From a virus: 64,000 nt of DNA. Below, piece after piece: positions 26,383 through 55,382 of this stretch. The position numbers and the translations under genes were made by a program. The stretch covers positions 28,059-92,058 of IMG/VR virus record IMGVR_UViG_3300046781_000054. One strand, given 5' to 3'. The notes under the pieces are model-generated. The model saw nothing but the letters and a program-made list of their open reading frames with translations. It searched no databases and had not been told where the DNA came from. Within the stretch, counting starts at the first letter, position 1. Each line of letters begins with the position of its first letter.

Positions 26383-27048
26383 TCAGGGAAGGACCAGGCG
26401 CAGCAAGCCCGGGAGTTCAGAGGCGGATTCGGACGGGCTGGACGTCGGGGTGGGGCCGGTCGTCTCTGTGCTGGTGATGCGGCGGCACACGAGTGCGTCC
26501 GGGTCGTTGGGGTCGGGCTCGAGGCGGTAGCCGTCGGGGCAGGTCTGGCCGTCCTTACCGTCGGACCCGTCCTTGCCGTCGCTGCCGTTGCTTCCGTCCT
26601 GGCCGCTCTGGCCGTTCTGCCCCGCCGCGCCGGAGGGCCCGGGAACCGTGGAGTCCGCACCCGGCTGCCCGTCCTCACCGTCCCGTCCCGGCTGCCCGGA
26701 CGCGCCCGGAGACCCCGGGGAGCCGGAGGGGCCGGGCGGTCCCGGCACCGTGGACGTCGGCCCCGGAGAACCGGGGGTGCCGTTCTGCCCGGGCTCCCCC
26801 GTCGCATCCCGGCCCGGCTTTCCCTCCGGCCCGGTCACCGGCGTCCCGCCCAGCTCCCGGACCTGCGCGGCCAACGCGTCCCGCTGCTCGGACGCCTGCG
26901 CCAGATCATGCGAGAGGGTCCGCAGCGTGATCAGCACATAGCCGAGGAGGGCCACGCACGCCAGCACGCCGACCGCCCACACCAGATCGGTGCGGCGCCG
27001 GCGCTGCCGGAACGTGCGCGCCTCCCGCTGCTCCCTCTGCCTACTCAT
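26383..27048 (-). CDS. Membrane-anchored collagen-like protein
   Basis: TM helix, coiled coil, Gly-X-Y repeats, CPDGY...C. Confidence 0.8.
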   Translation of the reverse strand: MSRQREQREARTFRQRRRRTDLVWAVGVLACVALLGYVLITLRTLSHDLAQASEQRDALAAQVRELGGTPVTGPEGKPGRDATGEPGQNGTPGSPGPTSTVPGPPGPSGSPGSPGASGQPGRDGEDGQPGADSTVPGPSGAAGQNGQSGQDGSNGSDGKDGSDGKDGQTCPDGYRLEPDPNDPDALVCRRITSTETTGPTPTSSPSESASELPGLLRLVLP

Positions 27049-29488: not shown

Positions 29489-29600
29489 GACGTGCTCCTG
29501 CGTTCTCCCCGCGCCCAGAGCTGGCTGTCGTGGCGGGCCACTGCTTGTGGCCGTCCCTCGGGGAGTGGAGCAGGAGGATGGAGGGTCATCCTGTGATCTC

Positions 29601-40862: not shown

Positions 40863-41249
40863 CTACGGAGTGCTGGTGCCGAGGTCCTGCATGACCTCCC
40901 GTGCCGCGATCACAGACGGCGGCAGCAGAAGGACTTTCATGCCGGCGCCGGCAGGGCCTTCGGGGATCTCCTTCTGCTTGAGGGCGATCTCCTCGCAGCC
41001 CATGCACTTGTGGCTGACGGCGATGTACGCGTCGACGTACTCGCCGTTGTCGTCCGCCCACTCGGACTCGCGGGTGCCGCACTGCGGGCACACGCCGCGC
41101 ATGTAGTCGGCGTAGGCGAGCGCCTTGTCGCGGTCGAGTGGGGTCCAGCGGCCGTCACCGACGCCCCGGAACCAGCTGTGCGGGATGCGGTACTCGCGGC
41201 ACAGGTCGAGTTCGCGGCGTAGTCGGGCATCGGTGGTCAGCCTTTTCCC
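40863..41249 (-). CDS. Tail assembly chaperone, -1 frameshift extension (gpT-like)
   Basis: Entered via GGGAAAA at 41243-41249, reading GKRLTTDAR...; no RBS of its own. Confidence 0.8.
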   Translation of the reverse strand, partial: GKRLTTDARLRRELDLCREYRIPHSWFRGVGDGRWTPLDRDKALAYADYMRGVCPQCGTRESEWADDNGEYVDAYIAVSHKCMGCEEIALKQKEIPEGPAGAGMKVLLLPPSVIAAREVMQDLGTSTP

Positions 41250-41794
41250 AGGTCCATGCGGACGTTGGTCTGCACGCTGAACGCGGTGTTGAACAGGGCG
41301 GACGCTTCGCCCTCGGCCCACTCCGACAGGTACGTCTTGGCGTCGTCGACGGTGATGCCGTCCAGGGAGGACTGGGCCACGAGTTCGGGGCCGAGGGCTT
41401 CGACGTTGAAGGCGTAGCCCTCGTCGGCCTGTTCCTCGGTCGGGGGGTGGCGGCGCTGGAGGTCTTCGAAGTCGGCGCGGCGCAGCGCCTGGAAGGTGAG
41501 GCGGATCGCGATGTCATCGAAGGCGGCCTGCGCCGTCTCGAGGTCGCTCTTCGCCGTGTCGAGGTCGGCGGTCAGGGCCTGGCTGCCGGGGTCGGTCTTG
41601 AGGTCGCTCTCCACTCGCCGCACAACAAAGCGGGCCTCGTCGAGGGCCTTCTTGACATCCGGGTCGTCGCAGATCGTCAGGACGGACGTGGGCCGGTTGC
41701 GGTTGCGGAGCTTCTCGCGGGTCGCCGTCCAGTGCGCGTCGGCGGCCACGGCGTCGGCGGGCGGCTCAGGAGTCGTCGTCTGCTTGCTGGTCAT
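41237..41794 (-). CDS. Tail assembly chaperone (gpG-like)
   Basis: Between major tail and tape measure; ends CTG GGA AAA GGC TGA. Confidence 0.85.
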   Translation of the reverse strand: MTSKQTTTPEPPADAVAADAHWTATREKLRNRNRPTSVLTICDDPDVKKALDEARFVVRRVESDLKTDPGSQALTADLDTAKSDLETAQAAFDDIAIRLTFQALRRADFEDLQRRHPPTEEQADEGYAFNVEALGPELVAQSSLDGITVDDAKTYLSEWAEGEASALFNTAFSVQTNVRMDLGKG

Positions 41795-41906
41795 CGGTGG
41801 GGTCCTCCGTCAGGGGAAGGGACCCGGCCGGGCGCCGCACGGCGCCCCTTCCCGAACGCTGTCGGGCCCGGCCGGGAGCTGGGAGAAAGGGGTGAGCGGG
41901 GGTGGG

Positions 41907-42713
41907 TCAGCCGCCGGGCGTGGTCGTGGTGACCGCGACGGCGGGGCTGGTACCGCCGGTGAACGTTCCGGTGGCGGTCATCTGCGGGACGTTCGCACCG
42001 TCGTAGGCGCCGCCGAACGTGACCGTGACCGGCGTGCCGGGCAGCGGGCCGCCCGCGCAGGTGACATCGCCCGGCGCGACGTTCGACAGGGCCTCCAGCG
42101 CCGTCTGAACCGCGGACGCGGTCGCGTTGTACGCGATCGCGCTGGTGGTCTGGCTGTTGAACGTCAGCGTGAACGTGCCACCGGTCGGCGTGCCCGTGAT
42201 GGTGACGGTCTGGACCTCGTCGGTGCCAGCAACCGGGACCGGGGCGCCCTGCAACGGCCGCTCCGTGATGGAGCAGGTCGCCATGAATTTGGCAGCCTCG
42301 TTGTCCGCCGTGTACTGCGGGGACTGCGTCGCGACACGGATCGGGAAGACGTCCATGCTGTTGTTGCCGGGGATGTCGCCCTTGCGGAGGATGACGACGT
42401 AGGCGTTGGTGCCCTTGGCGAACATCTCCTCGAGGTCGGCGTCCTCCTCGTCCTCGTAGAACGTGAACGACGACTGGTCGGCCTTGTCGCTGCCGGGGAT
42501 CGTCGAGTCGTAGGTGTCCGCCATGTCCGGCGTCTCGATCTCGTTGTTCGTGACGGTCCAGCCGTCCATCGCCGCGATGTACGCGGAGAACTCGGTGCCC
42601 GCGGACAGTTCACCGCGGGTGGGCAGCAGCGTGTCGGAGGCGATCGCTGGCACGAAGTAGAACCGCGATGTGCCGCGGCGCATGTACTTCTTCGGCTTGC
42701 TGAGAAGCGGCAT
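41907..42713 (-). CDS. Major tail (tube) protein with C-terminal accessory domain
   Basis: Position and tube-like N-domain; EVQTVT...GGTFTLTF domain. Confidence 0.85.
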   Translation of the reverse strand: MPLLSKPKKYMRRGTSRFYFVPAIASDTLLPTRGELSAGTEFSAYIAAMDGWTVTNNEIETPDMADTYDSTIPGSDKADQSSFTFYEDEEDADLEEMFAKGTNAYVVILRKGDIPGNNSMDVFPIRVATQSPQYTADNEAAKFMATCSITERPLQGAPVPVAGTDEVQTVTITGTPTGGTFTLTFNSQTTSAIAYNATASAVQTALEALSNVAPGDVTCAGGPLPGTPVTVTFGGAYDGANVPQMTATGTFTGGTSPAVAVTTTTPGG

Positions 42714-42850
42714 TTCTGGGCCCCTTGGTCCCGGGGCCTTCGAGGTCTATGGGACCCGGCCCCTACACGTGTGGTGTGTGGGTGGCGGCCACCGAAGTGG
42801 TGGCGTCCGCGTGGGGTCCCGCCGCGGTGCGGTGATGCCTGACCCGTGGG

Positions 42851-43300
42851 TCAGGCGGATTGCAGGTCGAATGCGAACCTGCTGGCACTGGACATGATTC
42901 CATCTGGTGCGTCTGGTGTTCCCCCTGCTTCGATGTCCGGGCGGCGGGCGAGGATCCGGCCGCCGGGGACCGTGAGCGGGTGCAGCCACTGCCGGGTAAC
43001 CGGGTCGCGGCCGAGGAAGACTTCGCGGGCCGTGTCGGCGAGCCACTCCATCTGGTCCTGCGTTCCGTAGGAGTCCGGGTCGGACAGGTCCCGGCCGGAC
43101 ACGGAGCGGACCTGGTAGATGAGGGTGGCGTCCTCGTTGAGGTCGCTGTAGTAGGCGCCGGACGTCTGCCGGTCGATGTAGTCGAGGATGTAGTAGTGGC
43201 TCGGGCTGCCCTCGGGCATGGCGCCGCGGCCGACTGGTTTCCCGGATGCGGTCTCCAGCAGGGTGGCGAGCGCGTTGGTGACTTCCCGTGTGCTGATCAC
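42851..43300 (-). CDS. Tail terminator / head-tail completion protein
   Basis: GTGA coupling, position before major tail. Confidence 0.7.
   Translation of the reverse strand: MISTREVTNALATLLETASGKPVGRGAMPEGSPSHYYILDYIDRQTSGAYYSDLNEDATLIYQVRSVSGRDLSDPDSYGTQDQMEWLADTAREVFLGRDPVTRQWLHPLTVPGGRILARRPDIEAGGTPDAPDGIMSSASRFAFDLQSA
42894..42925 (-). promoter_or_regulatory. Element-specific promoter GGGGGAACA-N17-AATCAT upstream of major tail gene
   Basis: 8-copy motif family; embedded in the 3' end of the preceding CDS. Confidence 0.6.
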
Positions 43301-43683
43301 CGCAGGATCTCCGTGAGCGCGAGCCGCATCTGGCTCATCAGCGTGTTCTCGATGAAGCCGAGAGCGGGCTGGACGTGCGGGAACGGCGGCTGGTTGTAAT
43401 TGCGGCCGATGCTGTCCGTGCCCACGAAACCGAACTCCAGGCGCCGCCCGTACGGGAGGTCGGTGCCGAGGGTGCAGATCGCCCCGTGCGGGATGCGGCG
43501 GGTCTGCGTCTGCCAGGAGTTGCGGTAGGCGCCGGTGATGACGTTCGGACCAGGCCGGCCGGAGGCGTTGCCGCGGATGCGGGCCTGGCCGAGCGTTCCG
43601 GTGTGGGCGACTCCGCGTTCGATGGCGGGCCCGATCCGGGTGGCGGCGTGCTCGAGGCGGTCGGCGAGTTCCTCCGGTGTCAC
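43297..43683 (-). CDS. HK97 gp10-like neck protein
   Basis: TGAYRNSW...YGRRLEFG...QPPFPHVQPA. Confidence 0.85.
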   Translation of the reverse strand: MTPEELADRLEHAATRIGPAIERGVAHTGTLGQARIRGNASGRPGPNVITGAYRNSWQTQTRRIPHGAICTLGTDLPYGRRLEFGFVGTDSIGRNYNQPPFPHVQPALGFIENTLMSQMRLALTEILR

Positions 43684-44129
43684 GGCGTCCCCTCCTCTGC
43701 CTGGTTCTGGTCGAGGGGCGTGATCCGTACGACTTCGGTGGTGGCGGCCCGGCCGGGGTCCTGCACGATCCAGGACCGGCCGAGGAGTGCAGTGTTCGTC
43801 GGGTTGTGGACTTCGAGGACGGTGACGACGGCATCTTTCGGGGCGACGGGCGCCTCGAGCGGCGTCAGCAACCGGTAGCGGGACTTGGTCTCCTGCGTCC
43901 ACGGCTGTAGCACGTTCGGGGTCGCGGAGATCTCCGACTGTGCGGTGCCGCCCTGCACTGCTCCGGGGCCCTCGTAGAGGATGTCGGAGTCGGGTCGGGT
44001 GAGGTTGCCGGTGCCCGGGTCGAGGGTCGGGCGGCCGGTGGCGCGGAGTTCGATGCGGACGGTGTCGACGAGGAGATTCGTGCCGATCCACTGTGTGACT
44101 CCGGCGAGGGCGCCGTCGAGCCCGGTCAT
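43680..44129 (-). CDS. Head-to-tail stopper (DUF6093-like)
   Basis: DTVRIE...DPGTG...LYEGPGAVQ; ATG 44129. Confidence 0.75.
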   Translation of the reverse strand: MTGLDGALAGVTQWIGTNLLVDTVRIELRATGRPTLDPGTGNLTRPDSDILYEGPGAVQGGTAQSEISATPNVLQPWTQETKSRYRLLTPLEAPVAPKDAVVTVLEVHNPTNTALLGRSWIVQDPGRAATTEVVRITPLDQNQAEEGTP

Positions 44130-44512
44130 CGGATGTCCCCTCCCCTGGCCCACTCGGACAGTTGCCGCAGGATCGCCGCGGTCACCTCGTGCTTGCCGCC
44201 GTCCAGGTCGGGCCGGTCGAGGGCGGCGCGCTCGAGGGCGGCGGGGTCGATCCCTGCGAGGAAGTTGGCCATCGTCTCGCCGGGCGGCTCGGTGGTGGCG
44301 ACGGCGACGCGCGCGAGGCCTTCCCACACCACCGTGTCCTGTTCCCGGGTGTGGAGGATCAGGGAGGGCAGGCCGTCGCGGATGTTGTGCTCGAGCTGGT
44401 AGGCGATGACGTGCTCTTCGATGTGTTGGCCGTCGATCGCGATGCGGGCGCCGAAGGGCTGCGCCTCGATACGGACGCCGTGCGCCTGAGGTGTAGTGGG
44501 TTGCTCGGTCAC
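44126..44512 (-). CDS. Hypothetical protein
   Basis: Coupled starts and stops. Confidence 0.7.
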   Translation of the reverse strand: MTEQPTTPQAHGVRIEAQPFGARIAIDGQHIEEHVIAYQLEHNIRDGLPSLILHTREQDTVVWEGLARVAVATTEPPGETMANFLAGIDPAALERAALDRPDLDGGKHEVTAAILRQLSEWARGGDIR

Positions 44513-44781
44513 CGCTCCTCCTGGCTGATCTCCGCACGCATGCGGGTGAGCTGGAAGTCGAGGAGCCCCATGATTCGGTGGTGGGGCGTCTGGCCTCCCC
44601 CGTCAGGGAGGAGCATGAGGACCTGGGTGATTCCGTCGCCGTCCCCGTCGTAGCGCTGGACGGTGGCGAGGACAGCCCACTCTGTCAGGACGCCGTCAGA
44701 GCCTTCGAGTCTGCCGACCTCTTTGATCGCCTCTTCGAGGCGCGCATAGGCAGCCTTCTCTTCAGAGCTTTGGTCAGCCAT
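44509..44781 (-). CDS. Hypothetical protein
   Basis: GGAGG RBS, ATG 44781. Confidence 0.7.
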   Translation of the reverse strand: MADQSSEEKAAYARLEEAIKEVGRLEGSDGVLTEWAVLATVQRYDGDGDGITQVLMLLPDGGGQTPHHRIMGLLDFQLTRMRAEISQEER

Positions 44782-44953
44782 GTCGGTCCTCCTCAGCAAG
44801 TTCACGACCGTCCAGGGAGTTGTGGACACAGATCCAGTTGATGGACCCGTCCTCTGCCTTCTCGGGCCGTTCTTGGGGACCGCAGACGCACTCGGTGCCG
44901 ACCGCTTCGTGTTCGATCAGGTCGTTGATCGGTGTGACGTGCAGGGTCGTCAT
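44774..44953 (-). CDS. Small His/Cys protein (HVTPINDLIEH...CVCGP...VHNSLDGRE)
   Basis: ATGA coupling; motif typical of actinophage small proteins. Confidence 0.65.
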   Translation of the reverse strand: MTTLHVTPINDLIEHEAVGTECVCGPQERPEKAEDGSINWICVHNSLDGRELAEEDRHG

Positions 44954-45798
44954 ACCGAGTCTCCTGAGGCGAGGTTGGGGCGGTCGTTCAGGTCGGGGCG
45001 CGGTACCCACTGCCGTACGCAGCCGTGGTGGGCGGTGGGGAAGGCGGCCGCCTCCTCGGCCGAGCGGATGGTGCCGTCCGCGTGGTCGGTGTCCGCGTGA
45101 TTCGTGAATCCACACTCGGGCCCGTCGATGCACTCGAACCACAGCGCATCCAGCTCAAGACGGCCGGTGTTGATCGCGGCGGTGTTCGCGGTGACGACGC
45201 CCTGCCACGAGAGGGCCGACTTCGCCCACGCGTCGACGGGGTGTCGGGCTTGGTTGGAGTAGATGACCGTGCCGAGCGGGTGGTCGGCGATCAGGCGGGC
45301 CGAGTCGATGTGGTCCTCGGTGTAGTTGACGGTGATCTCGCGGGCCGCTGCCTGTGCCGCGCGCGCGAACGCCTGGGCGCGGCGGACGGCTTCCTGGATG
45401 CGCTGCATGAGGTCGCTGTAGAACGTGGCGGTGATGCCGGTGACGGCGGCCTGGTGGTCGGCGGTCCAGGTGAACAGGGCGGCGGCGCGGTGGGCGCGCT
45501 CGAGGGCGCGGATCGCGCCGTCGCGGTAGGCGATCGGCAGGTCGGTGGCCGCCCACCGTTCAGCGAACGCGCGGGCCTGCCGGTCGAACTCGGCGACCTG
45601 CCCGTTGAAAGCGACCGTGGCGGTGCGGATACGCTGCGTGGCGCCGGGCCCGCGGTGGATGCGTTCCAGGGCGCGCACGAGGGTGTCCTGCGCGGTGCTG
45701 AGCCGTCCCCAGGTGCGGGTGAGCTGGTAGACGCCGGTGGCGATGAGCGCGAGGAGTTCTTCACGTCCGTCGACGGTCCGCTGCACGGGGGTGCTCAT
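44950..45798 (-). CDS. Minor capsid / MuF-like head morphogenesis protein
   Basis: C-terminal DGPEC...HHGCVR (HPxCxR-like) motif. Confidence 0.65.
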   Translation of the reverse strand: MSTPVQRTVDGREELLALIATGVYQLTRTWGRLSTAQDTLVRALERIHRGPGATQRIRTATVAFNGQVAEFDRQARAFAERWAATDLPIAYRDGAIRALERAHRAAALFTWTADHQAAVTGITATFYSDLMQRIQEAVRRAQAFARAAQAAAREITVNYTEDHIDSARLIADHPLGTVIYSNQARHPVDAWAKSALSWQGVVTANTAAINTGRLELDALWFECIDGPECGFTNHADTDHADGTIRSAEEAAAFPTAHHGCVRQWVPRPDLNDRPNLASGDSV

Positions 45799-46139
45799 CG
45801 GCGGGGCCTGGCAACGAGTTGGATGACACCGAGTGTTCCGTCGCTGTCCGAGCTGTCGTCGTCCTGAGGTTCATCCGGAGCGGGCGGCTGCCCCGACTCC
45901 AGGATCGTCAACTGCCGCTCGTAGGCCTTGATGTTCTCCGTGTAGGTGACGCCGACGACGGAGGACACGTTCACGGCTGCGGGTTGGGCGCGCAGGTCAG
46001 CGAGGCGGGAGCGGATGACGGAGATGGCGACGGCCCGCGCGGTACGGAGTCGGGTGTAGCGGGTCTCAAGGTCGGCGACGTCCGTGGAGGCGCCGAGCTC
46101 GTCGAGGAGCCAGGCGCGGGTGGCGCTGTCCATGGCCAT
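45795..46139 (-). CDS. Head-to-tail adaptor
   Basis: Position and size. Confidence 0.65.
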   Translation of the reverse strand: MAMDSATRAWLLDELGASTDVADLETRYTRLRTARAVAISVIRSRLADLRAQPAAVNVSSVVGVTYTENIKAYERQLTILESGQPPAPDEPQDDDSSDSDGTLGVIQLVARPRR

Positions 46140-46231
46140 GGGGGCTGTCCTCCGTCGCAGGGGGTTGGAAGGGTGGCGGGTGCGGGCCCGCCGTGTGGCG
46201 CCCCACCACGGGGGCGGGCCCGCACGCGCTC

Positions 46232-46543
46232 TCAGTCGCCGCCGTTGCCCTCGTCGGCGGCGTCCCGGCCCCGGGCCGGCTTGCTGGCCGCGCTCTTGCG
46301 AGGTGCGGCGGTCTTCTTGGCCGCCGAGGCGGCCTTGCCATCGGTCTTCGCCTCGTCGGCGGCTTCCGTGGTGCTGCCGCTATCGGAGGTGTCGGCGAGC
46401 GTAGGCACCTCGCCGTTCTCCCAGCACGCCGGGTTGGTCACGAGCGCCGCGTATTCGGGTGCGGGCTCTTCTCCGGCGTGCAGGAGGACATCGCGGTGCT
46501 TGACCGGGTCGCGGACGAACACGGATCGCACGAGTCGGGGCAT
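46232..46543 (-). CDS. Small capsid-associated protein
   Basis: ATG 46543 directly after MCP; GEEP.PE.A..VTNP..W motif. Confidence 0.7.
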   Translation of the reverse strand: MPRLVRSVFVRDPVKHRDVLLHAGEEPAPEYAALVTNPACWENGEVPTLADTSDSGSTTEAADEAKTDGKAASAAKKTAAPRKSAASKPARGRDAADEGNGGD

Positions 46544-46548
46544 GGCGA

Positions 46549-47604
46549 TCAGTCCTCGTCCAAGACGGTGGCGCTGATGTGGAAGTTGTTCACGTACAGC
46601 ACCGGCATCGCGACGGCGTTGGCCGTGGTGGAGAACTGCACCGGGTTGGACTTCTTCTCGTAGGAGACGTAGATACCCGGCTCCTGCGCGGCCTCGAGGC
46701 CCGGGTTGTCTCCGGAGTCGAGGTTGTCCTGCTCTGCGGTGATGCCGTACTGGGTCTGCGCCCACTGGTCCGGGCTCGGGGGGATCATGGCCCACAGGCC
46801 CTCGGGGGTGACGCGCTTGAAGACGTCGTCGTCCCACACCTGCTCGTCGTAGAGCTCGACCGGGGGCAGGTTCCAGCGGGCGCGCACGGAGTTGACGTCC
46901 GGCGGGGCCAGCGTGGTGGAGGGGGTGGTCTCCGGGCTGGAGGAGTTCCAGAACGCGGTGCGGTACTCCAGGTTGGAGGCCAGCACGGACAGGGCCCGCT
47001 CGCTGGTGATGACGCGGGCGGGCTTGGGGGCGCCGATGCTCTTGAGGTAGCGGATCCACGCCATCTCGTCGGTGAGCGGCTTCGCGCCGTCCTGGTCCCA
47101 CGGGATCGCGGCGACGGGCTTGTTCTCGGCGGGCACGTTCCAGTCGACGTCGAGGCCGACGCCGGGCAGGTTGACGATGCCGGTGGTGAGGAGTTCACCG
47201 GCCGCCAGCTCCATCGCGATCTTGATGGAGGTGAAGTGGCGGTCGAGGTCGCTGTACAGCTGGTCGATGAAGTCCTGGTCGTCCGCGCCGCGCTTGGCGG
47301 TGTGGAGGATCAGGGAGAGCTCGCCCATTTCGAGGGTCTGGCCGACCGGGGGCAGCATGCCCTCGTTGACGACGCGCTCAGCCTGGCGCTTGGCCAGCGC
47401 GTGCGGCGCGTCGAAGGCCCGGAACTTCGCGGCGTTGACACGCCGCTTGTTCGACTCGATGCGGAACTTCGGGCCGTAGATCTTCCGCTCCGGGATGACG
47501 CTCTGCGTGAGCGCGTACGTGTTCGGAGTGGGCAGACCGTTGATGTAGGCGTTGATGTCTTCCGGCGTGACGTTCCGCAGGAGACGGTCGAGAGTGGAGC
47601 TCAT
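46549..47604 (-). CDS. Major capsid protein
   Basis: 351 aa, lambda gpE-like features (LPPVG; E..AGELLTTG; C-terminal AMPVL). Confidence 0.85.
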   Translation of the reverse strand: MSSTLDRLLRNVTPEDINAYINGLPTPNTYALTQSVIPERKIYGPKFRIESNKRRVNAAKFRAFDAPHALAKRQAERVVNEGMLPPVGQTLEMGELSLILHTAKRGADDQDFIDQLYSDLDRHFTSIKIAMELAAGELLTTGIVNLPGVGLDVDWNVPAENKPVAAIPWDQDGAKPLTDEMAWIRYLKSIGAPKPARVITSERALSVLASNLEYRTAFWNSSSPETTPSTTLAPPDVNSVRARWNLPPVELYDEQVWDDDVFKRVTPEGLWAMIPPSPDQWAQTQYGITAEQDNLDSGDNPGLEAAQEPGIYVSYEKKSNPVQFSTTANAVAMPVLYVNNFHISATVLDED

Positions 47605-47619
47605 GGTCGGTCTCCTGTC

Positions 47620-48366
47620 TTACCGGTAGTGGATGGTGACGCCGGGCGCGACGCTGGTGACGTCGGTCGGGTCGAAGGGGATCGGACACTTGTCGGCGTA
47701 GACCTCGCCGAACCACAGCAGCGCCCCGGACGTCTTGGTGGAGCCGGGCGCGAACATCGACTCGGTGGCGAGGAAGCCCTGAAGGACCTCGGTGCCGTCG
47801 GATGCGGTGGCGGCGCCGCCCGCAGTCGTGGTGGTGACGGTGACGGCGGGGCTGGTGCCGCCGGTCAGGCCGGACGCGGACGCGGTCATCTGCGGCTGGT
47901 CGTCGCCCATGAAGCGGCCCACGAAGGTGACCTGGACGGCGGTGCCGGGGTGCGGGCCGCCGGATACGGACACGTCACCGACGTTGATGTTCGACAGCGC
48001 CTCGAGGGCTGCCTTCACCTGCGCCGCGGTGGCGTTGTAGGGGATGCCGGCGGTGGTCTGCCCGGACCAGGTCAGCGTGTAGGTGCCGCCGGTCGGGGTG
48101 CCGGTCACGGTGACCGTCTGGACCTCGGACGTCGGCCCCGAGTAGGGGGCGAACATGCCGGTCGCGGTGACCTTGCCGAGCGGCAGGCCGGACTTGAGGA
48201 CGTTGCGGGGCTGCAGCAGGTTGCCGGCCTCGTAGTGGACGCCCGCGACGAACTTCGTCAGGTCCAGCCGGATCGTGTTGGTGTCGTTGGTTCCCACGAG
48301 GGAGGCGAGCCACGGCCGTTCGGCGGTGGCTTCCTCGCTCGTACGCATGGGCTGGAAGTCGTTCAC
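47620..48366 (-). CDS. Head decoration protein with inserted accessory domain
   Basis: LKSGLPLGKVTATG.FAPY...DGTEVL.GFL split by an EVQTVT domain. Confidence 0.8.
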   Translation of the reverse strand: MNDFQPMRTSEEATAERPWLASLVGTNDTNTIRLDLTKFVAGVHYEAGNLLQPRNVLKSGLPLGKVTATGMFAPYSGPTSEVQTVTVTGTPTGGTYTLTWSGQTTAGIPYNATAAQVKAALEALSNINVGDVSVSGGPHPGTAVQVTFVGRFMGDDQPQMTASASGLTGGTSPAVTVTTTTAGGAATASDGTEVLQGFLATESMFAPGSTKTSGALLWFGEVYADKCPIPFDPTDVTSVAPGVTIHYR

Positions 48367-48467
48367 GGCCCTCTCCTTGGGGTGATGACGGTGCTGAAAG
48401 GCGGCACCGTTTCCGGCGCGTCCACGTGGGAGAGGTCGTGGTCCCAGGTCGTGCGGATGGTGCAGGG

Positions 48468-49265
48468 TCAGGCGTCGGCGGCGATCTTTCCGCGGCGCTT
48501 GAGCATGGCGAGGCCCCGCTCGCCGGGCTTGGGCTGGTTGGCGCCCGGGCGGGGGATGCCGGTGCCGGGCATCCCGGACGGTGCTGGCGGGACGGCGCCC
48601 GGGGCGGGGCTCTGGGCGCCGCCGAACATCTCGGCGCGGCGGCCCTTGAGTTCCTCGGCCGCGGTGGTGATGTCGTCGTCGGACGCGTCGTCAGTGACCC
48701 GGATCAGGGCGGCGGCGTCATCGAGGTCGGCGCCGGTCGCGCCGAGGGACACCAGGACGGCCCGGACTTTGGTGTCGCGTTCGCGCTGGGCGGCGGCGGC
48801 CTCGCGCTGCTCGGCCTGGGTGACGCGGGCGGCCAGGTCGTTCTCCTGCTGGGCGAGGGCTTCGGCGCGGCGCTCGTCCTCGCTGAGCTTGGCCTTGCGG
48901 GCCTCGTCGGCCTGCTTGAACATCTTGCCGAAGGCGGACGGGTCGAACGTGTCGAGGTTGAAGTCCTGAATGCCGGCGGCTTCGGCTATCTCGCGGATCG
49001 CGGCGTGCCGTCCGGCGCGGCGTTCCTTGGCCATGTTCTGGCCGAACCGCTCCTGGGTGATGATGACGCCGTTCTCGTCGCGGAGGGGTTCGACGGCGGG
49101 CGGGTTCTTCTGCGCCTGCGCGGCCACATCCGCCGGGGACGGCTGGGCAGGCGGCTGCGGGTCGCCGCCGTCGTTGTAGAACACCGGGGAGAAGACACCG
49201 GTGGGGTACGGGTGGGCCCAGCCGGCGTGGCCGGCACGGGCGGAGTGCTGCGCGGGGCGACGCAT
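48468..49265 (-). CDS. Capsid scaffolding protein
   Basis: GGAGG RBS, ATG 49265; charged coiled coil between portal and capsid. Confidence 0.8.
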   Translation of the reverse strand: MRRPAQHSARAGHAGWAHPYPTGVFSPVFYNDGGDPQPPAQPSPADVAAQAQKNPPAVEPLRDENGVIITQERFGQNMAKERRAGRHAAIREIAEAAGIQDFNLDTFDPSAFGKMFKQADEARKAKLSEDERRAEALAQQENDLAARVTQAEQREAAAAQRERDTKVRAVLVSLGATGADLDDAAALIRVTDDASDDDITTAAEELKGRRAEMFGGAQSPAPGAVPPAPSGMPGTGIPRPGANQPKPGERGLAMLKRRGKIAADA

Positions 49266-49302
49266 CTGTCCAAGTCCTCCCAGACTCGTAGTGCAACTTC
49301 CA

Positions 49303-49359
49303 GGCCCCGCGCCTAGATCCAAGTTCAGCACAGATCTCACGATGTGTTCCCCCCGCTCC
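49303..49359 (-). promoter_or_regulatory. Late promoter plus conserved leader AGGCGCGGGGCC (scaffold/capsid)
   Basis: GGAGCGGGGGGAACA-N17-TGAACT-N7-AGGCGCGGGGCC. Confidence 0.75.
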
Positions 49360-51214
49360 CCTGCGCCGGGTCTTCCTCCGTCGCGGGGGAGGCGGTCGGG
49401 TCGGTTGCGGGCAGGTTCGGGGTGGGCGGTGTCGGGTCGGGGTTGACGTCAATGCCGAGGAAGTCGCCGACCGCACCGGTATCACCGGTGGCGTCGGCGA
49501 GGGCGCGGGCCTGCTCGAACTGGCGGGACTGGATCCGTTCGATCTCTTCGCCGATGTCGTCGACGGGGAACCCGACGGTGGTGAGCATGCGGATGGCGGT
49601 CTCCAGCGACATGACGCCGTCCTTGACGGCGGCGCGCACCATGTCCAGGGTGGCGGCCTTGTCGGTGGGCTTGTAGGTGCCCCACACGAGGTCGACGTCG
49701 ACGACCGGCCCGGTCCAGTCGGGGTGCTGGCCGGCCTGGTAGAGGCGCTGCACCATCTTGAACAGCAGCTGGTACTTGTGGTCGCGGGCCAGGTGCAGGG
49801 AGTCGAGCAGCGGGTCCATCGGCCCGTAGGACAGTTCGATGGAGAACCCGGACGGCGCCTTGGTCGGGTCGAGGGTGCCGAGCGCGACGGCGGGCATCCG
49901 CCCGTTCACGGAGAGCCGGTCGAGGAGTTCGGCGGTCTTGTTGCGGAGCTCGGCGAGCATCGGGGACGTGTCGAGGGGGATGAGGTTGCCGCCCTGGCCG
50001 AGTTCGAGCATCAGTCCCGGTTCGATGTGCATGCGCCGCTCGCCGCGCCGTGTTTTGTTCTCCGGGTTGATGACGCCGATCATCGGTGATCCGGTCGTCG
50101 CGGAGGCGAGGCTGGAGTCGGTGTCCGTTCCGGCGATCTCGTCGAACAGTTGCATCAGCAGCGACAGTGACGACTCGCCCCAGTGCCCGTCCTCCGGGAC
50201 CGTGTTGGGGACGTGGACGACGGGGAGGAAGTCCAGCTGCAGGTCCAGGTGGTCGAGGACTTCGCCGTCGGGCCGGGTGATGAACCGCGCGTACCGGTAG
50301 TCGAGGTTGTAGACGTCCTGATCGGCTTTGATGTCGTCCAGGTCCCACTCGGCGTCGGTGAGGTAGCAGGTGAGGGTGGACGGGGTGTCGTTCCACGGGT
50401 ACTGGCGGCTGATCTGCCAGGTCTCCGGGGTGTAGACGTCACCGCCGGTCAGGAGGGGGGTCTGGCCGTCGTCGGCGAGGGCGGGCACCCGGGCGGGCCG
50501 GTCGCCTGCTTCGGACAGGGTTCGGGTGCCGATGGGGGCGAGCTGGTAGGTGATGCGGCGCAGCTTGCCCTTGGTGCCGGTCTTCGGGTCGGGGTCGATC
50601 TCCCACGCGAAGTGCACGGTGGTCGGGTAGTCCGCGGAGTCGCCTGCAGCGTCGGGCAGGTCGGGGAAGTAGAAGCCGGGGTCGACGACGGACAGGCGGG
50701 GCCGCTGCTTGTCGGCGTCCCAGGCCAGCGTGTACACGCCGTCGCCCTCGCGGACGGTCTTACGTTCGTTTTGCTGCAGGCGCAGCGTGAACAGTTCCTT
50801 GCGGGCCCAGTCCCGTAGCCGTTCCTGGACCGCGGCGGCGTGCACGGCGTCGGCATCCGGGGTGGAGCCGTCGGCGGGTTCGGCGTCCTCGGCTCCCTTG
50901 GCGGTGATGGTCTGCTCGCGGCCGAGCAGGTGGGAGGTGAGGGCGGCGATCCACATGGCGGGGTCGCCGAACTCGCGGCGTTCGTCTGCGGTGGTGCCGT
51001 CCTGCAGAGAGGCGATCTCCCAGGCCTGGTTGTGGGCGTAGGCGGCGCACAGCGTGTAGGAGGCCAGCCTGCGGCGGTCGTGTTCGGGGACCCAGGTGCG
51101 CATGGCGGCGGGGAACGCTTCGCGGTTGGGCTTCTTGTACGCCGGATCGGCGAAGACCCGCTTGTAGTTCAGCGGACTCCACCGGTCGACGATGAGGCGA
51201 GGAAGACCCACCAC
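49337..51214 (-). CDS. Portal protein
   Basis: After terL; GDGVY, LPVVHVPN..HWGES, APSGFSI motifs. Confidence 0.88.
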   Translation of the reverse strand: MVGLPRLIVDRWSPLNYKRVFADPAYKKPNREAFPAAMRTWVPEHDRRRLASYTLCAAYAHNQAWEIASLQDGTTADERREFGDPAMWIAALTSHLLGREQTITAKGAEDAEPADGSTPDADAVHAAAVQERLRDWARKELFTLRLQQNERKTVREGDGVYTLAWDADKQRPRLSVVDPGFYFPDLPDAAGDSADYPTTVHFAWEIDPDPKTGTKGKLRRITYQLAPIGTRTLSEAGDRPARVPALADDGQTPLLTGGDVYTPETWQISRQYPWNDTPSTLTCYLTDAEWDLDDIKADQDVYNLDYRYARFITRPDGEVLDHLDLQLDFLPVVHVPNTVPEDGHWGESSLSLLMQLFDEIAGTDTDSSLASATTGSPMIGVINPENKTRRGERRMHIEPGLMLELGQGGNLIPLDTSPMLAELRNKTAELLDRLSVNGRMPAVALGTLDPTKAPSGFSIELSYGPMDPLLDSLHLARDHKYQLLFKMVQRLYQAGQHPDWTGPVVDVDLVWGTYKPTDKAATLDMVRAAVKDGVMSLETAIRMLTTVGFPVDDIGEEIERIQSRQFEQARALADATGDTGAVGDFLGIDVNPDPTPPTPNLPATDPTASPATEEDPAQGSGGNTS

Positions 51215-51237
51215 TGTTCCCTTCTGGAACTCTGTTC

Positions 51238-51286
51238 GGCCCCGCGCCTTTGATCAGGATAGGAGCAGCGGACCCGGGTGTTCCCC
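51238..51286 (-). promoter_or_regulatory. Late promoter plus conserved leader (portal)
   Basis: GGGGAACA-N17-TATCCT-N6-AGGCGCGGGGCC. Confidence 0.75.
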
Positions 51287-51296
51287 GGTGATGGGG

Positions 51297-52877
51297 TTAG
51301 CGGCGGCCGCGGGGGGTGCGGCGTTCGTAGGTGCCGTAGATGCCGTCGTCGCCGTCGAGTTCGGCGAGTTCGGTCAGGGCATGCACGCAGGAGTCCATGC
51401 GGTCCGGGGAGTCCAGGCCCGGCATCCAGGTGACCATCTGCCGTTCCAGGGCGTGGAAGACACCAACGTGGTGGACACGCTGCTGCTCATAGAGTTGGGC
51501 GATCGGCTCGGCCCGCAGCCGTTTTCCCTGCTTGGCGTTGACGGGGATGATCCGCGGCATCAGCCGGCCGTGGGTGACACCGCGGCGTTCGAGTTCCCGC
51601 CACGCCTGGGTGAGGACCTGGCTGGTCATGTCGCCGCCGTAGTTGGACTCCACGACGATCGCGTCGGCCTGCCATTCCAGGGCGAGGAGGCAGGCGGTGG
51701 TGCCCCATTCGTCGGCCCCCATGGCACCGGATTTGTCGTCCAAGACGTAGAACTCGTCCCGGATCTCGGGGTGCGTGTGCTCAGGCCCTGCGCTCTGGAC
51801 GCGGGCGGAGGCGGCGGCGGTGATGCCGACCTCGTCGTGGCCGCTGGTCGAGCCGCCGGCCGGGTCGACGGCGACGACGATGCGGTCCAGGTCGATGCCG
51901 CGCAGGGCCGCCGTGGATAGGCGGTTGGAGTCGATCCACGTCTGTTTCCACACGCCGCCCTCCAAGGGTCTGGGCTGCTGCTGGTAGAGGGACCACCACA
52001 CGCGTTCGCCGACGGACTTGCGGATGCGGGCGTAGTCGTCGGCGTTGTACCGGGACGGCCACAGGGCTTCGCCGGGCTGGCGGCCCAGCGGGTCGTCGGC
52101 GGTCAGTGCGATGGCGGGCAGGTCGATGACGATCCAGTCCTCCGGTTCTTCCTTCAGGAGCCGTCCGGACAGGTCGTCGTCGTCCCAGCGGGTGTTGACG
52201 AGGAGGCAGGATCCCTGCGGTTCGAGGCGGGTGAGGAGGACGGACTGCCACCAGTCCCAGACGCGTTCACGCTGGGTGGGTGATCCGGCGTCCTCGGAGC
52301 CCTTGAAGGGGTCGTCGACGACGGCGACGTGCGCGCCGCGGCCGGTGAGCGCGCCGCCGACACCGGCGGTGACCATGCCTCCTTCGTGGCCGTCGATGTC
52401 GAACCGGTTGGCGGCCTGGGAGCCGTACTTGAGGCTGATGCCGAGGGTTCCCGCGTTCTCGGTGATGGTGTTGCGGACCCAGCGGCCGTGGTCGTCGGCG
52501 AGGTGGGCGGCGTAGGAGGCGAGCATGAACCGGTGTTCGGGCTGTCGGCGCAGGTACCAGGCGGGCCCCCAGCGTGAGGTACGACGTGACTTCCCGGCGC
52601 GGGGCGGCATTGTGACCATCGCTCGGATGCGTTCCCCCGCGGCGATTCGTTGGTAGATCCGGTCGATGATGTCGAGGTGCGGGGCCTGCATCTCCCGCCC
52701 GCCGGTCAGCACGGTGGACAGGGCACCGGGGCTGCGGTCCATGGCCATGACGCGTTCGACGTGGGCCAGGCGCAGCCGCAGGTCGGGGGTGGCCCGGCGT
52801 GCGATGCGGCGGCGTTCCACGAGCGGCAGGGTCCGGTACCGGTCGAGGGCTTCCGCCTCGGGGTCAGTTGCTGTCAT
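51297..52877 (-). CDS. terL: Terminase large subunit
   Basis: MPPRAGKS Walker A, VVDDPFK, TRW, VAVDPA, ESNYGG, SPDRMD. Confidence 0.95.
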   Translation of the reverse strand: MTATDPEAEALDRYRTLPLVERRRIARRATPDLRLRLAHVERVMAMDRSPGALSTVLTGGREMQAPHLDIIDRIYQRIAAGERIRAMVTMPPRAGKSRRTSRWGPAWYLRRQPEHRFMLASYAAHLADDHGRWVRNTITENAGTLGISLKYGSQAANRFDIDGHEGGMVTAGVGGALTGRGAHVAVVDDPFKGSEDAGSPTQRERVWDWWQSVLLTRLEPQGSCLLVNTRWDDDDLSGRLLKEEPEDWIVIDLPAIALTADDPLGRQPGEALWPSRYNADDYARIRKSVGERVWWSLYQQQPRPLEGGVWKQTWIDSNRLSTAALRGIDLDRIVVAVDPAGGSTSGHDEVGITAAASARVQSAGPEHTHPEIRDEFYVLDDKSGAMGADEWGTTACLLALEWQADAIVVESNYGGDMTSQVLTQAWRELERRGVTHGRLMPRIIPVNAKQGKRLRAEPIAQLYEQQRVHHVGVFHALERQMVTWMPGLDSPDRMDSCVHALTELAELDGDDGIYGTYERRTPRGRR

Positions 52878-53400
52878 CGGGCGTGTGGTCGGTCCTGTCC
52901 GGGAGCCGGAAGTCGGTGGCGGGACCGGGCTCCCCCGCAGTGTTCATGAGGGTGGTGAGTTCGGGGAGGGTGCCGCCGAGCGGGATGATGCCGCCGTCCG
53001 GGCCGGACAGTTCGGCCTTGGTCGGCATGTCGAGGCCGTTCAGTTTCGCCCGGCGGTCCATGAGGCGCAGGACGGTGTCGACGGCCCGCATGTCGAGTTC
53101 CTCGCCGACGACGTTGCCGTCGCGGTCGAGGACGGGGCTGGGTTCGGTGGCGTGCGGCCACGCGGCCCGCAGGAGCGCGTCGAGGCGTTCGTTCTCCTGC
53201 TGCCGGTACACGGACACTTCGGCGGCTTCCTCGTCGCGGTTCAGCTCGAGGGCGCGCAGGAGGTCCTTGGAGGCGTCACCGCGGCTGGAGTAGCCGAGCT
53301 CTTCGGCGATCTTCTCGAACGTGGCGCCGGCGACGCGCATGCGGATCAGCTTGGCGCGGCGTTCGGCGGTGAGGGCTCGTTGGGCTTTGGAGGGTGGCAT
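52864..53400 (-). CDS. terS: Terminase small subunit
   Basis: N-terminal HTH (GATFEKIAEELGY), RRAKLNGLD, ELSGPDGG; overlaps terL start. Confidence 0.85.
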   Translation of the reverse strand: MPPSKAQRALTAERRAKLIRMRVAGATFEKIAEELGYSSRGDASKDLLRALELNRDEEAAEVSVYRQQENERLDALLRAAWPHATEPSPVLDRDGNVVGEELDMRAVDTVLRLMDRRAKLNGLDMPTKAELSGPDGGIIPLGGTLPELTTLMNTAGEPGPATDFRLPDRTDHTPDDSN

Positions 53401-53435
53401 GGCGGTCGGGGCTCCCGCTGTGTCGTTGTGGTCCA

Positions 53436-53485
53436 GGCCCCGCGCCTGTCACAGATGATCGCCGATTTTCGGTTGGGTGTTCCCC
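53436..53485 (-). promoter_or_regulatory. Late promoter plus conserved leader (terS)
   Basis: GGGGAACA-N17-GATCAT-N7-AGGCGCGGGGCC. Confidence 0.75.
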
Positions 53486-53515
53486 TGGTGGCGGGTGGGC
53501 TGCACCATGCGCCGT

Positions 53516-53941
53516 ATGGGACACATGGGCAGGGTTGGGGCCGCTGTGATGTTGGTGGCCGTGTTGGGGCTGGGTGCGGTCGGCTGTGGGGGCGGTGACG
53601 GCGGGGGTTCGGGTGCGAAGCCGTCGGCGACCGTCTCGAAGCGGGTGGTGCCGCGGGATGCGTTGGAGGCGTACGAGCGGGCCACCGTGTCGGGGTGTGA
53701 GGGGGCGGAGAACTGTCAGGCGTTCATGTCGCGGAAGCTTGCGGCGGCGGAGAGGGTGCGGGCGGCGATGAAGGCGAAGGACGCGGACCGGTATGCGGAG
53801 CCGATCGGGTTCGTGGATGAAGCGGACCGGCAGGCCAACCACTACGGGCGGGGGAATCTGGCGGCGAAGGGCAACATGCTGGCGGTCAGTACGCCGTTGC
53901 AGCGGATGGTGGCGTGGTTCCGGGAGCATCCGGAGGGCTGA
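53516..53941 (+). CDS. Lipoprotein
   Basis: Signal peptide with lipobox AVGC; start between 53507 and 53525. Confidence 0.75.
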   Translation: MGHMGRVGAAVMLVAVLGLGAVGCGGGDGGGSGAKPSATVSKRVVPRDALEAYERATVSGCEGAENCQAFMSRKLAAAERVRAAMKAKDADRYAEPIGFVDEADRQANHYGRGNLAAKGNMLAVSTPLQRMVAWFREHPEG

Positions 53942-53958
53942 CCCTTGGCGGGCGTGAA

Positions 53959-53998
53959 GCAGCCCCACGACCCGGGGGGGGTGGGGTCGCGGGGCTGC
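53959..53998 (+). terminator. Hairpin after the lipoprotein gene
   Basis: GCAGCCCC-ACGACCC/GGGTCG-CGGGGCTGC. Confidence 0.55.
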
Positions 53999-54209
53999 GG
54001 GCTCGGGCGCGGGCCCGGGGGTTCGGGGCTTAGCGCCGGTTTTCGTTCCGATGTTCCTCAACCCCCGGGTTGGAGCCGGGACCCGAGCGGTCTGTGGCAC
54101 GGCCAGGGGGTTGAGGGGCGCGGGGACGCTGCTCTCCCCCGAGGCCGTGCACGACCATCGTGGGGCACGATCCGCGGTTTGTCTCAGGCGGTATCCCCCT
54201 GCTCCCCGG

Positions 54210-54875
54210 TCACGCCCAGGGCGGGCGGCCGCCGTTCATCCACGCCGCGGTGTCGTTGCCGTCGAAGAGGACGACGCCGAGCGCGCGGGCGGCTTCGTGT
54301 GCCTCCGTGGTGTAGCCGCTCGTGGTGACGATCGCGGCGTTCGTGCATCCGGCCTGGGTCGCGGCGCCCGCGGTGGTGCGGACTGTTTCCCCGCCGACCT
54401 TGTTCTTCGGGCTGTAGCGCTTGCACTGGATCAGCCAGCGGGTGCCGTTGGTGAGGTGGACGAGTCCGTCGCATCCGCGGTCGCGGGTCTGGCCTGTGCG
54501 GGAGGCGTGGGCGACGAGGGGGCTCTGTTGGGCGCGTTCGACGACGGCGTCCTCGAAGCGGTCGTGGTGCATGGTCTGGAGGCGTCCGAGGGTGGCCTGG
54601 CGGGGTATCGCGGACCGCTTGGGGATGCGGGCGGCGATCTGGTCGACGTGGTGGAAGAACGGGGCGAGGCGTCCGGGCCGGAACGAGGTCACGACTGCGA
54701 GGACGGCCAGGACGAAGACGATGATGAGGGCGGCGATGGTCTGGGCGGGCCAGGTGACGTAGGAGAAGTAGCCGATGAGGAGGGTGAGTCCGATACCGCT
54801 CCAGGTGATGCGGGGTAAGACGGCACGCCGTCGGCGGCTGGGGGCGGTGCGGATGTGCTGCTGCTGGATGGTCAT
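54210..54875 (-). CDS. Membrane-anchored Mrr-like (PD-(D/E)xK) endonuclease
   Basis: Two TM helices; FEDAV...DRGCDG...IQCKRY...VTTSGYT..A. Confidence 0.85.
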   Translation of the reverse strand: MTIQQQHIRTAPSRRRRAVLPRITWSGIGLTLLIGYFSYVTWPAQTIAALIIVFVLAVLAVVTSFRPGRLAPFFHHVDQIAARIPKRSAIPRQATLGRLQTMHHDRFEDAVVERAQQSPLVAHASRTGQTRDRGCDGLVHLTNGTRWLIQCKRYSPKNKVGGETVRTTAGAATQAGCTNAAIVTTSGYTTEAHEAARALGVVLFDGNDTAAWMNGGRPPWA

Positions 54876-54890
54876 GGGTTCCCCCGAGGT

Positions 54891-55382
54891 CTAGTTGTGG
54901 ATGTTGGTCTTGCCGAGCCACTTTTGGTGGACGTGGGTGGTGTTGAAGGTGGTGGGCCCGCCCGTGCCGCGTCCTGCGGAGGGCAGTTTGAGGGCGAGGA
55001 TGATGACGGCGAGCCAGAACAGGCCGCCGCTGGTGACGCCGGCGAGGCCGGTCATGGCTTGGCCGACGCCGTAGCCGACGCCTGCGGCGAAGGCGCCCCC
55101 GCCGACTCCGGCGCCGATCATGCGCTGGGCCATCGGGTCGAGGAGCGGTTGCGGGGTGAGGTCGCGGGCGGGCAGTGCCTGCATGGGCTGCACGTACTGC
55201 TTGGGGACGGCGACCATGACGCGCGGGTCTTCGGCGGAGGGGACGTAGACGACGGCGGGGCGTTCGTCGTATAGCTCGATCGCGTTGTTGGTGGGGCGGG
55301 TGGCGGGTGTGTTGGGGGGGTGGGTGGGCTGCCCGGCCGTGGTGGCGTTGGGCTGCTGGTACGGCGCGGGCAGACGGTTCAC
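54891..55382 (-). CDS. Small membrane protein of the transfer/spread region (Spd-like)
   Basis: Gly-rich TM pair; AGGAG RBS. Confidence 0.7.
   Translation of the reverse strand: MNRLPAPYQQPNATTAGQPTHPPNTPATRPTNNAIELYDERPAVVYVPSAEDPRVMVAVPKQYVQPMQALPARDLTPQPLLDPMAQRMIGAGVGGGAFAAGVGYGVGQAMTGLAGVTSGGLFWLAVIILALKLPSAGRGTGGPTTFNTTHVHQKWLGKTNIHN

Follow-up and report, generated by a model that had tools for sequence, protein, structure and literature searches.

A Conserved 11-Base Motif at the Predicted 5' Ends of Late Transcripts in pZL12-like Streptomyces Phage-plasmids and Related Prophages

RESULTS

Three Copies of a GC-only Motif Lie at Predicted Late Transcript Starts

The stretch of DNA analyzed here (the window) comprises 64,000 nucleotides (nt) of the virus record IMGVR_UViG_3300046781_000054, the whole element being 92,058 base pairs (bp) long, and it belongs to a pZL12-like Streptomyces phage-plasmid, its DNA identity being 69% to phage ZL12 and 67-75% to 43 matching plasmids with lengths of 85-94 kilobases (kb). 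The minus strand of its late region carries the genes for a small-terminase-like helix-turn-helix (HTH) protein (terS, 52864-53400), for the portal protein (49337-51214, assigned by phrog_64 and by synteny with relatives) and for a head scaffolding protein (48468-49265, phrog_2303), and terL and a lambda-E-type capsid gene are located nearby. The subject of this work is an 11-base motif made of G and C only that is found at the predicted first bases of the packaging (terS), portal, and scaffold transcripts. Extended to a 12-mer, AGGCGCGGGGCC, it is present in exactly three exact copies in the window, all of them on the minus strand, at 53447-53436 (terS), 51249-51238 (portal) and 49314-49303 (scaffold), which confirms the coordinates given in a preliminary description that was made from the letters of this DNA. 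Dinucleotide shuffles predicted 0.05 copies by chance and none of 100 shuffles reached three. No further copy was found across the whole 92,058-bp element.

The three copies have a common promoter context. A -10-like hexamer is located 6-7 nt before each 12-mer, i.e. GATCAT for terS (53455-53460, minus strand, at a distance of 7 nt), TATCCT for the portal gene (51256-51261, minus strand) and TGAACT for the scaffold gene (49322-49327, minus strand), and GATCAT is also found ahead of terS in distant relatives. Each hexamer is in turn preceded, at a distance of about 17 nt, by a GGGGAACAC box, at 53477-53485 (minus strand) in the terS promoter, at 51286-51278 in the portal promoter and at 49352-49344, inside the 3' end of the portal gene, in the scaffold promoter. 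With the closing T that follows it, the terS copy (53435-53447, minus strand) reads A-GGC-GCGGG-GCC-T.

Conservation of the Motif in Relatives

In eight relatives GGCGCGGGGCC occurs at the same three places, and the intergenic DNA around it differs. To avoid circular ascertainment, loci were collected through the portal protein alone (48-74% identity). The exact 11-mer was present no more than 130 nt upstream of the portal gene in all 33 of these loci, and it was present after the portal gene, at the scaffold promoter, in 27 of 29, the exceptions being one insertion variant and one displaced site. A profile scan restricted to one genome per species provided 80 more loci from Streptomyces, Kitasatospora, and Actinacidiphila, many of which are integrated prophages because they are placed on large chromosomal contigs. 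A core-like motif, GGCG(C/T)GGGGC, preceded the portal gene in 111 of 113 portal loci, including integrated prophages of the three genera, and in 103 of 108 unique portal contexts a TAnnCT hexamer (TACCCT, TACGCT, TACTCT, TAAGCT, and others) preceded the core by 6-8 nt. Across 76 species the 10-mer was GGCGCGGGGC in 64 and GGCGTGGGGC in 9, with other changes in 3. All copies are on the sense strand, there are 3-4 sites per genome, and the motif is located 13-40 nt ahead of the start codon, contains no ribosome-binding sequence and is followed by a conserved TG. Neither the promoter boxes nor the proteins encoded downstream are as well conserved as the motif. Its position at the predicted transcript start, as given by the spacing to the -10 box, and the invariance of this 5' arm were both pointed out in the preliminary description.

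The fixed spacing of 6-8 nt to the -10 box, the invariance of all motif positions and the retention of TG after the motif speak for an element that acts as DNA, in which the duplex at +1 to +12 would be a downstream promoter element or an operator through which a protein or the RNA polymerase sets initiation or promoter escape. Evidence bearing on this possibility is considered below together with the results that provide it.

Searches for the motif elsewhere in IMG/VR returned 14-mer matches outside the family that are chance matches within coding sequence, and the bare 9-mer core occurs elsewhere in related genomes at about the control frequency. Several relatives (L003 and the matches H22, H27, H34, and H40) carry HNH or LAGLIDADG homing-endonuclease genes in or beside terL.

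The Motif Is Independent of Plasmid State and of Phage Regulatory Genes

The GGGAAC-type upstream box (GGGGAACAC) was observed at 52 of 72 sites of the pZL12-like subgroup, whereas it was observed at only 1 of 59 distant sites, against a background of about 4%. Because the distant sites keep the core, the core is independent of this box. Judging from these counts, the core and the -10 box are the constant part of the signal, and the upstream box varies by phage and is lineage-specific, that of the terS promoter being specific to the pZL12-like subgroup. The loss of the box from distant relatives that keep the core does not favor a DNA-level element.

When all 111 open reading frames of the element were compared with an 80-kb region surrounding the portal gene in each of three integrated relatives, homologues were obtained for the virion genes alone (window 27045-53400), and nothing beyond these genes appeared even at E = 0.05. 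The whole virion module (27045-53400), and nothing else, is common to the phage-plasmid and to Streptomyces chromosomal prophages (G006, G008, and G009; loci L281-L292). One of the integrated relatives has the head genes alone in common. The overall pattern is one of module-level mosaicism. In one complete relative no annotated sigma factor, RNA polymerase, or Q-like gene was found, only WhiB-family, GntR, and HTH proteins. A search of five whole host genomes with the composite signal TAnnCT-N6-8-GGCG(C/T)GGGG gave 14 matches versus 9 for the reversed control, 13 of the 14 being inside prophages, and no host regulon for the composite signal was found in these five genomes.

Since only virion genes are common to the three integrated prophages and no host regulon was found, a repressor or lock proper to the plasmid state is unlikely, and an immunity repressor, a plasmid-specific lock, or a host transcription-factor regulon are unlikely readers of the motif. 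The suggestion in the preliminary description that the motif serves as a second safety lock on the head and packaging genes of a plasmid-state prophage is not sustained, the same core being found ahead of these genes in integrated prophages that bear no relation to the element in their non-virion genes. The comparison indicates instead that the motif travels with the virion module among phages whose regulatory regions are unrelated. The lack of a regulator common to the integrated relatives, like that of a host regulon, also counts against a site read as DNA.

A Putative Mini-hairpin at the 5' End of the Transcripts

The core reads GGC-GCGGG-GCC, and the bases on both sides of it covary. Over 215 promoter-type sites the flanking bases were A-T in 148, C-G in 12, G-C in 5, T-A in 3, T.G in 7, and G.T in 3, so that the flanks are paired in 83% of the sites versus 66% expected from base frequencies. 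Orthologous sites provide series of such exchanges, A-U / G.U / G-C in one portal lineage and C-G / U.G / U-A in a distant scaffold-like gene. In a diverse alignment of 73 sequences the covariation score of the flanks was 0.198 versus 0.138 +/- 0.017 in shuffles, a value reached by 1 of 500 shuffles, and it was well above all slid controls. Moreover, there were 19 changes from C to T at the last base of the core, each leaving a G.U pair in place, and the first G was never A. Because C to T is tolerated and G to A, its equivalent for the opposite strand, was never seen, it would be the sense strand that folds, in the form of RNA or of non-template DNA; the restriction of G.U-forming changes to the sense strand is a further point against a duplex DNA element.

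These data suggest that the motif probably forms a 5'-terminal mini-hairpin with a GGC / GCC stem, a G(C/U)GGG loop, and one covarying closing pair, a structure that was not part of the preliminary description and is new with respect to it. The predicted fold of the first 16-30 nt of the nascent RNA is dominated by the mini-hairpin, with a probability of 0.95-1.0, as for the terS copy. In the predicted equilibrium fold of a full leader that contains a complementary segment (anticore), a long-range helix replaces the mini-hairpin.

An integrated relative carries a perfect palindrome, GCCCCGCGCC-ttgacc-GGCGCGGGGC, at approximately 3507340-3507370 of G006:C1 (in locus L283), some 100 nt before terS. 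The anticore is here immediately upstream, and the core is the 3' arm of a perfect 10-bp hairpin. A palindrome of an anticore, 6 nt, and a core before terS can be counted in favor of a DNA-level element. However, the inverted second copies are met at variable distances and with insertions of 1-4 nt, which RNA helices tolerate better than protein dimers do. Considering all of these points, an element acting as DNA is possible although rather doubtful.

Pairing of the Motif with the Start Regions of terS, Portal, and Scaffold

The preliminary description had proposed that the motif folds over the start of all three genes, and the complementary segments on which the proposal was based, at 53412-53401 for terS, 51208-51195 for portal, and 49258-49250 for scaffold, do exist. 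The sense strand of the late region is strongly C-rich, so that a G-rich 12-mer pairs easily, and the mean energy of its duplex with any 50-nt window is -16 kcal/mol. Relative to duplexes with 50-nt background windows taken from this C-rich strand, the start-region duplexes ranked at the 7th percentile for terS, the 1.2th for scaffold, and the 69th for portal, with a similar spread of percentiles in the relatives. Compared with 150 composition-matched permutations of the 12-mer over 131 sites in relatives, z was -1.8 for terS, -2.5 for scaffold, and -0.9 for portal, the portal value being near -1 in the wider family as well. The pairing at the portal start is, therefore, not above chance.

Consensus folding gave a related picture. 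In scaffold, 8 conserved pairs join the motif to codons 3-6, and in terS 9 conserved pairs join it to the segment that immediately precedes the ATG; the portal fold contains only a 6-bp helix with two wobble pairs. The terS anticore, GCCCCGACCGCC (53401-53412, minus strand), lies downstream of the ribosome-binding site and ahead of the ATG. All 35 aligned relatives have the segment GCGGGAGCCCC(G)ACCGCC unchanged, and the coding sequence after it diverges completely; in distant relatives GCCCC-A(A)-CCGC(GCC) is kept at a similar distance from the core, although inside terS codons 2-6. The scaffold anticore, GCCCCGCGC (49250-49258, minus strand), lies in codons 3-6 and forms 9 perfect pairs with the motif, and its silent positions are frozen, Pro being CCC in 44 of 45 sequences and Ala being GCG in 35 of 35. 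It is the invariance of the terS arm and its retention in distant relatives, together with the frozen silent positions of the scaffold arm, that give weight to these two arms. No covariation was detected in the consensus folds for the long-range pairings of terS, portal, or scaffold, since both arms are invariant. The proposed fold over the start codon is thus partly supported as a predicted structure: it is credible for scaffold, given the z of -2.5 and the frozen silent sites, and for terS, given the invariant arm, but is at chance level for portal. Likewise, of the conservation expected in relatives, the 8 scaffold pairs and the 9 terS pairs were recovered, whereas long-range covariation and an arm in distant scaffold genes were not.

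These results bear directly on the view that the 12-mer is an inhibitory arm common to the three genes, which an antisense RNA or an RNA-binding protein would open and which would constitute a second safety lock in the plasmid state. The conserved complementary arms in the start regions of terS and scaffold agree with it, and an unvarying 5' arm speaks for a common reader. On the other hand, portal pairs at chance level, distant scaffold genes are found without the arm, the motif is not specific to plasmid prophages, and no conserved complementary RNA was found in the element, the best candidate being in a coding region and not conserved. A translation lock of this kind is, accordingly, unlikely.

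Leader hairpins were also observed closer to two of the start codons. In the portal leader (51216-51230, minus strand) a GUUCC/GGAAC hairpin has the ribosome-binding site in its loop, and the corresponding stems in relatives are GUUCC/GGAAC, CGUCC/GGGCG, and CAGCG/CGCUG. In the scaffold leader (49272-49287, minus strand) a GAGUC/GACUU hairpin presents the ribosome-binding site GGGAG in the loop, with GAGUC/GACUU, GUCC/GGAC, and CUCC/GGAG as the stems in relatives. In both cases the sequence differs and pairing is kept. Codon 2 of the scaffold gene (49262-49260, minus strand) is CGT in 39 of 45 relatives, an Arg codon that is rare in high-GC actinomycetes.

Searches for a Reader of the Motif

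The antisense RNA acting in trans that the preliminary description had envisaged was not encountered: there is no conserved complementary RNA in the element, and near-complements occur at chance frequency. The best candidate looked intergenic (26646-26657 of the genome), and it is inside an open reading frame and not conserved. Pairing with host rRNA was also rejected, since the best duplex (-24.9 kcal/mol) falls within the permutation range (-21.8 +/- 1.7) and none was found in 16S rRNA. The likeness of CGCGGGG to the 5' end of the initiator tRNA, and a G-quadruplex formed with the ribosome-binding site, were considered and dropped for want of support. No Rfam family matched at gathering score in the whole window.

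Among proteins, TerS is the only DNA-binding protein encoded in the shared module. It has a sigma-region-4-like HTH, and nothing links it to the motif. A fold search with TerS pointed to small terminases through a weak match (E = 0.07), and a profile search against solved structures gave no match. The protein matches PHROG 645, labelled 'RNase E' (E = 3e-37), and the 'sigma-70 family' label given by PGAP to a protein of one relative, which had raised the possibility of a phage sigma factor, falls on the HTH of TerS. Both labels look wrong, because structure prediction and the fold search favor a small terminase with an N-terminal HTH. The literature searched for the motif in a phage context and for late promoters of phage-plasmids contained nothing relevant, and no published description of the motif was found in it.

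The presence of the motif directly after each late promoter raised the question of whether it is a nascent-RNA site of the boxB, put, or qut kind that, by itself or together with a factor, modifies the RNA polymerase and confers resistance to termination, e.g. by Rho, along the long C-rich late operons. A stem of 4-5 bp with a five-base loop has a size like that of boxB, the late mRNA strand is indeed strongly C-rich, and a target on the host polymerase would explain both the invariance of the motif and the absence of a co-inherited regulator. Nevertheless, a search of the sense strand from 41000 to 55000 returned no intrinsic terminators, and the annotation of a complete relative lists neither a Q-like nor an N-like gene. 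The loop also differs from the GNRA-like type, a position at the extreme 5' end is not required of nut sites, and the element is far smaller than put RNAs, which are about 70 nt long. Modification of the polymerase through the motif is, hence, quite unlikely.

The Lysis-cassette Leader and Promoter-like Sites without the Motif

A degenerate copy of the motif, GGGCGCGGGGAG, is located in the leader of the lysis cassette (29505-29516, minus strand), where the preliminary description had correctly noted a weak copy at 29516-29507. It has no -10 box in front and is conserved in the relatives L001, L002, L171, and L172. In one integrated relative a full promoter-type copy of the motif precedes a lysis-region gene. 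The same leader contains, at 29560-29530 (minus strand) and at the same place in L171 and L172, a conserved GGCCAC/GUGGCC hairpin that in one relative is GGCCGC/GCGGCC, a compensatory change, and CCUCC-like runs upstream could pair with the ribosome-binding region.

Two further promoter-like sites of the type GGGGAACAC-N16-17-TAnnnT lack the 12-mer (42924-42880 and 22464-22425, minus strand), one of them being ahead of a long structured leader upstream of tail genes and the other directly before an ATG. The GGGGAACAC box is, therefore, more widely used in the element than the core.

DISCUSSION

The motif is best explained, with a probability that we put at about 0.4, as a cis element of late transcription units of many Streptomycetaceae temperate phages, in which a hairpin, capture by an anticore, and a sequence-specific reader are combined. 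Placed 6-8 nt after a TAnnCT -10 box, the motif would form the first 11-13 nt of each late transcript. Once transcribed, the mini-hairpin would immediately fold on the sense strand, covering and protecting the 5' end of the message. In terS, and in the scaffold gene of the pZL12-like subgroup, the anticore of the start region would later capture the motif, and the resulting long-range helix would throttle translation. The near-total invariance of the motif points to a further sequence-specific reader, which might belong to the general machinery of the host (the ribosome, an RNase, or the RNA polymerase in the initial phase of transcription) or be encoded in the virion module; to judge from the gene comparisons, it is not among the plasmid or immunity regulators of the element. 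The reading put forward in the preliminary description, a fold over three start codons unlocked by a trans factor, is thus partly supported.

Several observations weigh against this explanation. The 5'-terminal position of the motif is a prediction from its spacing to the -10 box, and a DNA-level role at +1 to +12 is compatible with the sequence. The mini-hairpin is weak (-5 to -7.6 kcal/mol), its closing pair is missing from 25 of the 63 distinct rows that were sampled, and its three stem pairs never vary and so carry no covariation signal. A plain protective hairpin does not account for the invariance of both loop and stem. No anticore-type arm was found in distant scaffold genes, and replacing the real 12-mer by a permuted one makes hardly any difference to how accessible the start region is in partition-function models; because a permuted G-rich sequence of this length is almost as effective in closing the start region, the fold alone cannot explain the invariance of the motif.

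A more specific version of the explanation assumes that the hairpin is read directly by invariant host machinery, i.e. the RNA polymerase leaving the promoter, the ribosome, or the degradosome, so that the motif would be a factor-independent 'late-message tag' that goes with the virion module from one Streptomyces phage to another that is otherwise unrelated, and a kinetic switch in terS and scaffold, from the hairpin to the helix that closes the start, would set the level of translation. We consider this version unlikely.

The control of late genes in temperate phages and phage-plasmids of Streptomyces is almost unstudied. The motif provides a precise, family-wide marker of late transcription units that is independent of the regulatory genes of each phage. 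Should it prove to be an RNA tag that host machinery reads, it would represent a new control element of small size and might be used as a portable leader to express genes in Streptomyces; should it prove to be a DNA site, it would be a conserved component of late promoters.

Some of the features of the motif resemble those of known systems. The 5'-terminal stabilizer hairpins of bacterial and phage mRNAs, such as those of the ompA and T7 gene 10 leaders, lengthen mRNA half-life and need structure and not a fixed sequence. Like them, the predicted hairpin would be 0-2 nt from the 5' end and common to highly expressed late messages; unlike them, its loop and its stem are both invariant. In the Com-mom system of phage Mu, and in anti-antisense control such as that of rpoS-DsrA, the start region is shut off by a structure of the leader until a sequence-specific trans factor opens it. 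The leader helix formed by the motif may similarly close the start region of scaffold and terS, but no trans factor was found for it and portal is without a significant closing helix. With the lambda nut boxB, the HK022 put, and the lambda qut sites the motif shares the nature of a promoter-proximal signal repeated at several phage promoters, and its predicted hairpin is boxB-sized; it differs from them in that neither a gene for N or Q nor a terminator downstream of the motif was identified. A qut site works with a Q gene, a -10-like sigma-dependent pause element in the region transcribed first, and a terminator further downstream. As for the qut-like DNA site that the preliminary description had offered as an alternative, the initial region contains only G and C, the complete relative has no Q-like product, and the search of the sense strand found no terminators, which does not agree with a site of this kind.

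Two systems of mycobacteriophages are closer in appearance. The stoperators and operators of Cluster A phages number more than 20 sites per genome; their reader is the immunity repressor, and their sequence changes from one immunity group to the next (PMC9283540). The motif is like them an asymmetric site of about 13 bp that occupies short intergenic gaps and is oriented with transcription. Unlike them, it is present at 3-4 sites per genome and is invariant across phages with unrelated regulatory regions, the same core occurring in phages without common non-virion genes, which does not fit a stoperator or immunity operator. The SAS/ESAS elements of Cluster K phages are 13-bp sequences located 3-7 bp before start codons that contain the AGGAG ribosome-binding site, and 11-19 copies per genome mark non-structural genes (PMC3203893). 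Like SAS, the motif is short, asymmetric, found in one orientation, characteristic of an actinophage family, placed before genes of different families, and not a host signal, as judged from five host genomes. Unlike SAS, it contains no ribosome-binding sequence, and its end is 17-40 nt ahead of the start codon; it is placed beside a -10 box, occurs 3-4 times per genome, and marks the virion genes.

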